The position numbers are program-made. Shown piece after piece: positions 26,701 to 29,700 of a stretch of 34,290 nucleotides of DNA. This DNA comes from a virus, in the UHGV virus genome UHGV-1987335, one strand, 5' to 3'. Numbering within the stretch: the first letter of the stretch is position 1; each line of letters begins with the position of its first letter.

Positions 26701-29700
26701 GTGGCGTGGTGCGTTGAGAATGACAGCCTGTTTTGCCTCACTGAGTTCCTTTTCCATTTCAGCCAACCTAGCCATAAAGCTATCCTGCTCAACCAGGTAA
26801 CCGCGATATTCCAGCGGTAGTACCGCCAGAATTGCCGGGGTCAGTTCACGCACGTTATTTCGGTATTTTTCAGAATCGAATTTGTTATCGAGGAAGCGGA
26901 ACAGCTTCTGGCGTGCACGGCTGACATCATCAGGGAAATCGATGGTGCCGCCGCCCTGCTCCCGATACTCATTCACAATGAGTGCGGCAACAACATCCTG
27001 ATTATCTGCAGCCGACCAGGCGCGGACGGCATCACGGATTTTTTCGTGGCCTGGAGCTTGTTTTGTTTGAGAACGATTTATCACCGCAGTCGGGCTAAAT
27101 CCGCTAGTCTGTTGGTATGTAAGTGGTTGCATAGTCATTGCCTTATCAGTTAACGCCGCAGTTTAGGCGGCAGAATTACTCGCGTTAAACAATGGTGCGA
27201 GGTCGGGACGAATATCTGCTGGTTTAATCTTTCCACCAGTGGCTGAGACAATTTTCATTACATAGCGGGCATCAATTCCGCCACCGTGTAGCCAACGCCA
27301 AACAGTGGGTTGGGCTACACCGCATAGATCTGCCAGTCGTTTTTGACTACCTGTAATACTGATTGCGAGTTGAATGGTTTGATTTGTCATTATCAATTCC
27401 TATTGGTATTGCAACGAATAAATAATAGCAATTCGTATTAATCATAACAATAGCAAAACGTGTTTTGACCATCAATACGCAAGCGTATAAATTAAAACTT
27501 ATGAAAAAAGAAACTCTTGCTGATCGCTTAAACCTAGCGATGGAACAATCTGGAATGTCTCAAGGCGCTCTTGCAAAGGCGTCTGGCGTAGCTCAACCCA
27601 CAATCTGGAGACTGACAAGCGGCAACGCGCGCGGCTCAACAAAAATTGTTGAAATAGCTAATGCATTGGGTGTTCGAACAGAGTGGCTCTCATCAGGCAT
27701 AGGCCCGATGAGAAATGACGGTCAACAATTAGGGAAGCCTACTGCCAACCATCCCAAATACTTCAAGATTGACGTTCTTGATATAGAAGTGAGTGCCGGG
27801 CCGGGAGTCATCAACCGTGAGTTTGTAGAAGTTCTACGCTCGGTTGAGTACTCGTTTGACGATGCTCGTCACATGTTCGATGGTAGGAAGGCAGAAAATA
27901 TCCGCATCATTAACGTGCGTGGTGACAGCATGTCAGGAACGATCGAACCAGGTGATCTGCTGTTCGTTGATATCACGGTTAAATCTTTCGACGGTGATGG
28001 CATCTATGCGTTTCTGTACGACGACACCGCCCATGTAAAGCGCCTGCAAATGATGAAGGATAAGCTGCTGGTTATCTCTGATAACAAGAGCTACTCACCG
28101 TGGGACCCGATCGAGAAAGACGAGATGAACCGGGTGTTCATCTTCGGTAAGGTTATTGGGAGCATGCCCCAGACGTACAGGAAACATGGATAATCAGTAC
28201 TGTGCTGATGAGTCGTTTAGGGGATAGTAAATTTAATTAGAATTAGACGAGAGCGATTTATGGATTGTGACGCTTTACAGGATATAAAAATCTCTCTTAG
28301 GTATGACGGAAAAGATGCTTTAAATCATGAAATAGATTTGAACTGCCTAGGAGAATCCCTAAAGGGTTTTTCTAAAGTTCTCTCAACAGCAGCTTCTTTC
28401 TCTGTTACACAAAAATATAGTAAATACATTAATTATCAAGAAGTTAAGGTTTACGCACGCGAAGCAAAAGCTAACTGCTTTACTCTTGAAGCAGTTCTTA
28501 ACTTCGCCACTCTGAACCAGTTGTTCTCGGGGATCGCCGCAACTATACTTGGCGCAATACTACAATATATTTTTGCGAGAAATTCTAACAAGAAAGATGA
28601 AATGAAAGCTTTGCAGCAGTCACTTGAAAAGGCCATAGAGGCACTAGGAAACAAGGATGCTGGAACCATTGATAAGTTGATCTCTTTGATTGACCGAATG
28701 GCTGTAGAGCTTCGCCCCTCTGTAAGGCAGGCAGTATCACCTATTGGTAATACTTGCGATCAGATAAGTGTTGCAACAAATGTTGACGGCTGCCTTCTAA
28801 AAGTTAACGAGAGAGATAAAGCTGAAATTGATAGGCTTGATGATGATGAAGTTCTCGGTCTTCGTGAGTATCGTGCTTTTCTTACAGAATTTGATGCACA
28901 AAATATGACAGCTAAAATAATTTTAGATGGTGATGACTCAAAAAAGAGAATCACTGCTGAAATTAGCGATCCAGCTGCAGGAAAGAAGAATAACCCGTAT
29001 ATTAGAGCTCTTAGTGCATATATATCAACCAAAGGTGATCCATCTGCAGTATTCACTATAACCGCAAAGGCTACTGTTAAAAAAGGCCAGATAAACAGGT
29101 TATTTATTGTAGATGCGAAATGATTTCCCCGGCCGTCGTGCCGGGTTTTCTTTTGCCTCCCCTCATCACACACCGTTCAAAAAACCACCACAACCTCCCT
29201 TCAGTTATCGCTATGCGATGCAAGTCACAAAATTAATTCTTTTTGCTATCAAACAGTTAATATCAAAACACATCAATCAATAGCTATAAGTATTGATACC
29301 ACCAATAGCAATGGATATTATTACCATGTCGCAACAACACAACGATACGGCAACCACCTGATTCACCGTTGCGATGACCGCTTAGATCCGCAGCTTGAAT
29401 TTCGGCAGGCTCCGGGGAGTGCGAGGGGTGAAACGGACGCGTGAACGTCGGTGTGACCAGCTGAAATCAACTCAACTCAACACCTCATACCTCAGTCGCT
29501 TCAACGAGGCGGCTTAGTTATGACAACCGGCGGCCATCCACCGCCTGAATACGCGCAGAAGTCTCTATATGTTCAGCAGCCCAGCTTACGGGTAGGAGTT
29601 TTTATGGTTCATCAACATTACGGAACGCAGACCGTTAATCGAGGTGCGGTCATGCCAGGAATGCTGGTCAAACACAAAGATGGTACCTGGACTGCATCAG

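Follow-up and report, generated by a model that had tools for sequence, protein, structure and literature searches.

What is the function of a gene that sits directly behind the repressor gene of a temperate phage? The question is raised by the virus genome UHGV-1987335, a stretch of 34,290 nucleotides (nt), referred to below as the window, which is a lambdoid Escherichia coli prophage integrated beside a tRNA-Arg gene. A preliminary description, made from the sequence alone, had pointed to an intact open reading frame (ORF) of 864 bp and 287 amino acids (aa) directly past the LexA-type cI gene and on the same strand. It had described this ORF as AT-rich, as assignable to no family and as a candidate for an undescribed phage defence gene in the position that rexAB holds in lambda. 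The ORF is indeed found there (28260 to 29123, 66 nt behind cI). Here we report that it encodes a member of an existing protein family and that it is the cargo of a swap slot in the repressor operon. A cassette in the cI operon and a role in defence are, taken jointly, the explanation that we somewhat favour from sequence comparison. The following features define the locus.

27501 to 28193, plus strand: cI repressor gene (Pfam Peptidase_S24 1.5e-18, HTH_3 1.5e-6; RefSeq WP_000712396.1)
28195 to 29127, plus strand: variable cargo cassette of 933 bp, GC 0.382, bounded by the stop codon of cI and the terminator of the operon
28249 to 28253, plus strand: weak Shine-Dalgarno-like GAGAG, 6 nt 5' of the ATG at 28260, read off the sequence
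28260 to 29123, plus strand: DUF7946/DUF7947 gene, intact ORF with ATG start, 287 aa
29128 to 29155, plus strand: intrinsic terminator of the cI operon, found by scan; encoded by the backbone and common to alternative cargoes

The distribution of the gene was determined in 5,426 complete E. coli genomes, where the cI allele was counted at a coverage of at least 80%. This allele is present in about 719 genomes. The DUF7946 ORF accompanies it in only 77 of them, always in single copy and at least 99% identical. To map the junctions, the window was aligned to four prophages that share its cI and its kil-gam-bet backbone and differ in cargo. In three of them (L090, L091 and L092) homology to the window breaks off at 28192-28194, at the cI stop, and returns at 29128, where the terminator hairpin begins; the variable unit is therefore 28195-29127. 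In the fourth (L093), which carries a SIR2 cargo, homology breaks at the same point and returns only at 29362, past oL/pL. A strong terminator had been described as closing the gene. Such a structure exists, with a 6-bp all-GC hairpin (29128-29145) and a following T-run (TTTTCTTTT), a folding free energy of -12.1 kcal/mol and a start 5 bases past the ORF stop. However, it belongs to the conserved backbone and not to the gene. The cargo therefore lies within the cI transcription unit.

The four alternative cargoes were compared with protein family and defence models. L093 (E. coli strain 135) carries a 533-aa SIR2_2 protein (PADLOC PDC-S25, 9.5e-235) with a ThsA-like match. A second cassette encodes a hypothetical protein and an ASCH protein (PDC-M11A/B at 2.9e-133 and 6.8e-52), a third a DUF6932 protein and a hypothetical protein (PDC-M63A/B at 7e-43 and 4e-42), and that of L092 a HipA_2-like kinase and a DUF3037 protein. 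All four cargoes examined match defence-type or defence-candidate models. All five cassettes, including that of the window, are AT-rich (GC 0.31-0.39) compared to the backbone (GC 0.47-0.50). The slot between the cI stop and the terminator is a recombinational swap slot carrying defence-type cargo. The experimentally validated system DS-37 (DeWeirdt et al.) also consists of a HipA-family kinase and a DUF3037 domain protein. The cassette of L092 has nothing but this domain pair in common with DS-37; its sequence is very divergent, and the DUF3037 protein shows no useful identity.

The product of the gene is 100% identical to WP_084818522.1, and a single residue (L85Q) separates it from WP_000340376.1, the variant common in E. 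coli. The reported AT-richness was confirmed: the GC content is 0.383 (0.29 at third codon positions, GC3) versus 0.483 (GC3 0.52) for cI and 0.499 for the whole window. Compared to a 91%-identical homologue, the ratio of nonsynonymous to synonymous substitution rates (dN/dS) is 0.057, and synonymous sites are almost saturated. In more distant homologues synonymous sites are saturated, and dN is still 0.08-0.38. The gene is under strong purifying selection. A 137-aa ORF with a GTG start on the minus strand (28760-29173), which is antisense to the 3' half of the conserved gene and crosses the terminator, was taken as spurious.

The protein can be assigned to a family, in contrast to what had been described. 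Pfam DUF7946 matches aa 11-191 (1.9e-54, 185 bits, cutoff 27), DUF7947 matches aa 201-287 (1.5e-18, 67 bits, cutoff 27), and phrog_5147 matches residues 1-287 of 287 (2.5e-177). A match to NCBIfam 'LAPAL' was dismissed (26 bits, cutoff 60). By these profiles the window protein is a full-length member of the DUF7946+DUF7947 family. An exhaustive profile search returned 499 family representatives at the 50%-identity level, and a second homologue search from a divergent alignment added only about six sequences. Nearly all full-length-looking representatives among those listed have 265-320 aa, and in ten relatives of atypical length DUF7946 and DUF7947 are still the sole two domains. The located homologues are mainly from Enterobacterales and also from Pasteurellaceae, Neisseriaceae, Burkholderiaceae and Helicobacter. 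In 50,697 phage records megablast of the ORF gave zero matches; only tblastn recovered phi80 and a prophage of Helicobacter. A set of 36 positions is invariant in homologues ranging from Escherichia to Neisseria and metagenomes, and across 95 divergent members only M1, G17, S33, G36, P161, D237, P238 and Y247 are conserved to at least 90%. This set is unlike a catalytic site, which suggests that the protein is non-enzymatic.

The link to repressor genes extends through the family. In loci from genomes and viral contigs a same-strand cI-like gene lies just upstream of the homologue in 80 of 87 cases. These repressors form 15 clusters (<50% identity) that are paired with 10 homologue clusters. 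A Cro/S24 pair also precedes a 36%-identical homologue, from which two small genes separate it, and a 49%-identical homologue from Vitreoscilla likewise sits behind Cro/S24, with a SIR2_2 gene next after it. The preliminary description had argued from the habit of this slot to hold exclusion genes, and with a swap slot and 15 repressor types the argument is now stronger than could be known from the window. Two neighbourhoods deserve description on their own. In Vitreoscilla sp. C1 (L099/L100, 7661-9274) a SIR2_2 protein of about 535 aa is encoded straight after the DUF7946 gene; in E. coli strain 135 (L093, 4306-5907) a SIR2_2 protein fills the slot alone. In Erwinia sp. CGal63 (L004, 5188-5933) two ORFs separate the cI-like gene from the homologue, one for a protein with a Tlde1 domain (177 aa, Pfam 1.4e-29) and a hydrophobic one of 71 aa. 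They look like a toxin/immunity-type pair in the same slot.

Within the window, the position relative to the repressor and its putative operators corresponds to that of rexAB. The features around the operon are listed here.

27163 to 27396, minus strand: cro-like gene with YdaS-type helix-turn-helix (HTH), divergent from cI (Pfam YdaS_toxin 1e-14, weak P22_Cro)
27394 to 27471, no strand assigned: putative oR-like operator cluster with three repeats of the form CAATAGC...TATTG, located between cI and the cro-like gene
27465 to 27493, plus strand: pRM-like promoter, TTGACC-17-TAAATT, from a consensus scan with 9 of 12 matches
29232 to 29326, no strand assigned: putative oL-like operator cluster with three oR-type repeats; the pL-like promoter overlaps it
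29293 to 29321, directed at kil-gam-bet-exo: pL-like promoter, TTGATA-17-TATTAT, from a scan with 10 of 12 matches
29604 to 29810, plus strand: kil, the first early-left gene (phrog_294 Kil 1.4e-38; RefSeq annotation)

Repeat families D1, D2 and D7 and the inverted repeats I1, I2 and I5 are common to 27394-27471 and 29232-29326. We infer that the cI repressor binds these oR/oL-like repeats. Because operator-type repeats are found on both sides, cI and the ORF lie together within the oR-oL immunity region, as in lambda and phi80, and the proposed rexAB position was borne out. Transcription from the pRM-like promoter would begin at about the cI ATG and yield a near-leaderless mRNA, as from lambda pRM. 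The cI start given here is that of RefSeq (27501); the mechanical ORF call begins at 27465. Between the cI stop and the ATG of the DUF7946 gene, both on the plus strand, is a 66-nt gap, in which a scan detected neither a terminator-like nor a strong promoter-like site. The arrangement suggests that the DUF7946 gene is cotranscribed with cI in the lysogen.

The same slot and strand after cI, inside the oR-oL region and before the operon terminator, are shared with lambda RexAB. Lysogen-expressed exclusion is proposed for RexAB and for the window protein. However, RexAB comprises two genes and the window cassette one. No RexA or RexB homology was found, as PADLOC gave no such match at E<=10 and hhalign a probability of 0.2% each; lambda RexA and RexB served as PADLOC controls (9e-110 and 8.6e-61). 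Judged by these comparisons the window protein is a positional analogue of Rex that is unrelated by descent.

A closer counterpart is protein 40A of phage phi80 (PHI80_46, AFV29182.1), a homologue with 62% identity over 99% of the length. Its gene lies between cI and oL/pL, matching the layout of the window. The literature consulted gave no function for 40A. The label 'acetate kinase superfamily domain' that 40A carries is unsupported in Pfam. In the 1988 phi80 record X13065 two genes, 40A (209 aa) and 40B (95 aa), are given in its place, while complete phi80 genome records have one 40A gene over the whole match (L001, JX871397, 4001-4867). Lysogens of phi80, unlike lambda lysogens, stop T4 development fully and reduce the P1 titre 10-fold, with no gene named (Rotman et al. 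2010, PMC2885432). The phi80 gene 40A is a candidate to account for the T4 block and the P1 reduction.

BstA of the Salmonella prophage BTP1 is a lysogen-expressed, single-gene abortive infection (Abi) protein encoded directly 3' of cI with its own terminator (PMC8585504). Searched against PADLOC at E<=10, the window protein matched PDC-S42 only, a search that had no control that PADLOC carries a BstA model, and it has no Pfam match to a KilA-N domain at E<=1. It is a positional analogue of BstA and, by these searches, unlike it in sequence. The match to PDC-S42, a model of 302 positions and thus of a length similar to the window protein, has an E-value of 3e-4 and covers aa 9-109 and only model positions 4-100 of 302. 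PDC-S42 was also matched by 44 of 95 divergent family members (best E 3e-8). On this evidence the relationship to PDC-S42, which is itself an unvalidated PADLOC candidate, is distant and runs through the N-terminal part.

The gene is not an undescribed defence candidate as had been claimed, since DefensePredictor (DeWeirdt, Mahoney & Laub 2026) already lists the one-residue variant WP_000340376.1. There it is a 'Predicted novel defense gene' of the 'uncharacterized' class, with log-odds of 6.28 (Table S5) and 7.45 (Table S10) at a cutoff of 4. The gene has thus been flagged computationally, and no family member is characterised. We consider anti-phage defence to be its probable function. Most likely it shields the lysogen from other phages via superinfection exclusion or abortive infection.

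Several observations weaken this interpretation. WP_000340376.1 is absent from the tested and validated DefensePredictor tables S6-S8 (94 tested and 42 validated units), and DefensePredictor confirmed only 45% of the tested predictions. A literature search for DUF7946, DUF7947, PDC-S42 and the accessions, which did not cover Brenes & Laub 2025, found no experiment. The T4/P1 phenotype of phi80 is unmapped to gene 40A. The PADLOC 'PDC' models are untested candidates, so that the argument from a defence hotspot is partly circular. Homologues not beside a repressor exist (L003, L005, L011 and L098), and these exceptions comprise the Helicobacter prophage, a Rahnella locus, a Burkholderiaceae metagenome-assembled genome and one locus beside a transposase and an integrase. 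In addition, a frameshift or an IS1 insertion disrupts some of the copies in E. coli. Such losses were seen among E. coli FDAARGOS_1267 (L096), the viral loci L045/L046 and E. coli PK8276 (H33). The frameshifted copies in this set leave a C-terminal ORF of 173-200 aa, and one copy is broken by IS1B. The DUF7946 gene was lost in certain lineages, though purifying selection is strong overall.

How could a protein of this type act on an infecting phage? The preliminary description had divided it into an N-terminal region of about 85 aa, a strongly hydrophobic segment and a charged C-terminal region of about 180 aa. This division was not supported, since the hydrophobic helix is part of the DUF7946 domain.

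28290 to 28832, plus strand: DUF7946 domain, aa 11-191; beta-sheet and three-helix bundle in the predicted model
28521 to 28583, plus strand: hydrophobic helix, aa 88-108, inside the three-helix bundle of DUF7946
28860 to 29120, plus strand: DUF7947 domain, aa 201-287; predicted beta-barrel resembling an oligonucleotide/oligosaccharide-binding (OB) fold

The profile and structure searches delivered the DUF7946/DUF7947 assignment and the OB-like barrel, but found no solved-structure relative of the N-terminal domain. The model of the DUF7947 barrel has five strands with a helix between strands 3 and 4, as in the OB fold. A structure search with it returned metal- or sugar-binding barrels as the best matches (SilF, AB5 toxin B subunits); SSB, RPA and PriB also match. 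Conserved basic and aromatic residues in the barrel are K219, R230, Y247 and K270. A sequence profile search of the PDB gave nothing under E 0.027, and the matches were all short helical stretches. Foldseek against BFVD returned solely uncharacterised phage proteins.

The hydrophobic segment itself is present. Residues 88-106 are free of charge with a Kyte-Doolittle value of 1.85, and the helix is uniformly hydrophobic, while both of its partners in the bundle are amphipathic. In 105 family representatives the position of the segment is conserved (median maximum 1.56 on the Kyte-Doolittle scale), and lysine and arginine residues average 2.85 after it and 1.2 before it in this set. Whether it is hydrophobic enough for a membrane was assessed with a translocon-type scale with values after Hessa et al. 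2005. The helix of the window protein scored +1.63 kcal/mol. Among the controls, the membrane protein RexB scored 0.01 and the ORF at the emrE position of the window 0.08, four soluble proteins 8-11 and the O-like replication protein 4.2. By this measure the helix is nearer to the two membrane values than are four of the five soluble proteins. RexB, which is polytopic in the membrane, has its best segment at 0.0 kcal/mol, whereas the window protein has a single marginal helix at +1.6. Transmembrane prediction is thus marginal compared to membrane controls at about 0, and a confident transmembrane call was rejected. A glycine-zipper reading was also rejected, with the pattern in 39 of 105 representatives and small residues at 0.34 versus 0.29.

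One possible mechanism combines both domains, although we put it forward tentatively and consider it less likely than not. The cargo would be expressed in the lysogen along with cI from a unit of pRM, cI, cargo and terminator. The C-terminal OB-like barrel might sense a phage-derived ligand, either nucleic acid or protein, and binding would free the hydrophobic helix that is shielded between two amphipathic helices. The freed helix may then enter the inner membrane or form oligomers there, and the energy supply of the infected cell would collapse, a Rex-like end result from an unrelated single protein. It is doubtful that the DUF7946/DUF7947 proteins form a new single-polypeptide Abi family acting by latent-helix permeabilisation with phi80 40A as the T4/P1 exclusion determinant.

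Several points speak against a helix that acts on the membrane. The predicted model buries the hydrophobic helix in the three-helix bundle. The family median on the translocon-type scale is +3.99 kcal/mol, with none of the 105 representatives below 0 kcal/mol. Small-xxx-small motifs are not enriched in the helix. Finally, either membrane topology clashes with the charge distribution or with the conserved residues C73 and C166, which flank the helix on opposite sides in the sequence. A constitutive transmembrane anchor is unproven. Both a sheltered helix that could be inserted upon activation and a helix that simply forms part of the core or of an interface would fit.

Among the other explanations, a non-defence accessory gene would serve lysogenic conversion or host fitness, or would modulate prophage induction or stability, and would merely share a permissive slot. 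It could draw on the missing experimental evidence for defence, on the 55% of tested DefensePredictor units without phenotype, and on the Erwinia slot, where a Tlde1 gene with a domain of the bacterial-competition type demonstrates that non-defence cargo is admitted. However, the gene is dispensable for the phage circuit, as its presence in 77 of about 719 cI genomes indicates. Moreover, every alternative cargo examined matches defence or candidate models, and two independent computational flags (PADLOC PDC-S42 and DefensePredictor) point to defence. We regard an accessory gene of this kind as unlikely.

A defence protein might also act in the cytoplasm, with the barrel binding single-stranded DNA or RNA of the phage, or one of its replication or packaging proteins, and blocking that step stoichiometrically. 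The outcome would be like that of BstA at phage replication sites or of assembly-interference systems, and the hydrophobic helix would belong to the core or an interface. The inclusion of SSB, RPA and PriB among the OB matches and the conservation of K219, R230, K270 and Y247 in the barrel are in line with this, and so are the packing of the helix in the modelled bundle, the translocon-scale values above 0 throughout the family and the lack of a conserved catalytic residue set. The presence of BstA in the same slot of BTP1 adds to this. The best OB matches are, however, metal- or sugar-binding and not specific for nucleic acids, and similarity to BstA or characterised systems was not found. 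The E. coli helix is also near membrane grade and is followed by a conserved stretch rich in lysine and arginine. On balance, a cytoplasmic inhibitor seems improbable.

Much weaker is the case for a superinfection exclusion (Sie) protein that is anchored in the inner membrane and blocks DNA entry, like P22 SieA, HK97 gp15 or lactococcal Sie2009. One hydrophobic helix with a basic stretch after it and the lysogen-expressed position would suit such a protein, and Sie-type genes commonly adjoin repressor genes. But the helix is marginal, there is no signal peptide, and an N-terminal tail of 87 aa with 10 basic residues would need translocation. Small Sie proteins do not typically contain conserved soluble domains of this size, among them an OB-like barrel, and the phi80 phenotype, itself not assigned to 40A, spans T4 and P1, which use different entry routes. 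We therefore rate DNA-entry exclusion of this type as very improbable. A decaying or spurious ORF without function, for which the frameshifted or IS1-broken E. coli copies and a possibly partly defective argU-site prophage might be cited, is effectively refuted by the selection and conservation data (dN/dS of 0.057 with synonymous sites near saturation, a length and architecture shared by 499 representatives, and the 36 positions invariant from Escherichia to Neisseria and metagenomic homologues).

The remainder of the window yielded several further observations. RefSeq annotates an HTH protein at the position equivalent to the cro-like gene, and the early-right genes are of the YdaS/YdaT type, unlike lambda cro/cII. 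Downstream of kil follow gam, bet and exo, with a Pfam Gam match in the next ORF, as a conserved right-hand backbone. From the pL-like promoter to kil there are only about 280 bp (29330-29603) with no N-type antiterminator gene, whereas phi80 has N; a 40-aa arginine-rich ORF with a TTG start is located between the pL-like promoter and kil (29395-29517). Between the replication genes and the late region (20611-24602), ORFs are found at the positions of the RefSeq DLP12-type genes ybcM, ybcL, ybcK (recombinase), ylcJ and emrE, and emrE is flagged as frameshifted in the RefSeq record of an identical prophage. An Rfam scan of the window gave no match. An anti-phage small RNA, svsR, is reported from the cI 3' end of a lambdoid prophage of E. 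coli NC101 (2026, PMC12803456); the corresponding cI 3' end in the window is 28050-28193.

If the defence role of the DUF7946 gene is correct, the anti-phage repertoire would gain a family of about 500 clusters (50% identity) without a characterised relative or an evident enzymatic site. A classical phi80 gene would obtain a function, which may explain the resistance of phi80 lysogens to T4 and P1. Independent of defence, the locus defines an exactly bounded swap slot in a common E. coli prophage backbone, which can be mined for cargo and provides a ready native expression setting in which such cargo can be tested.

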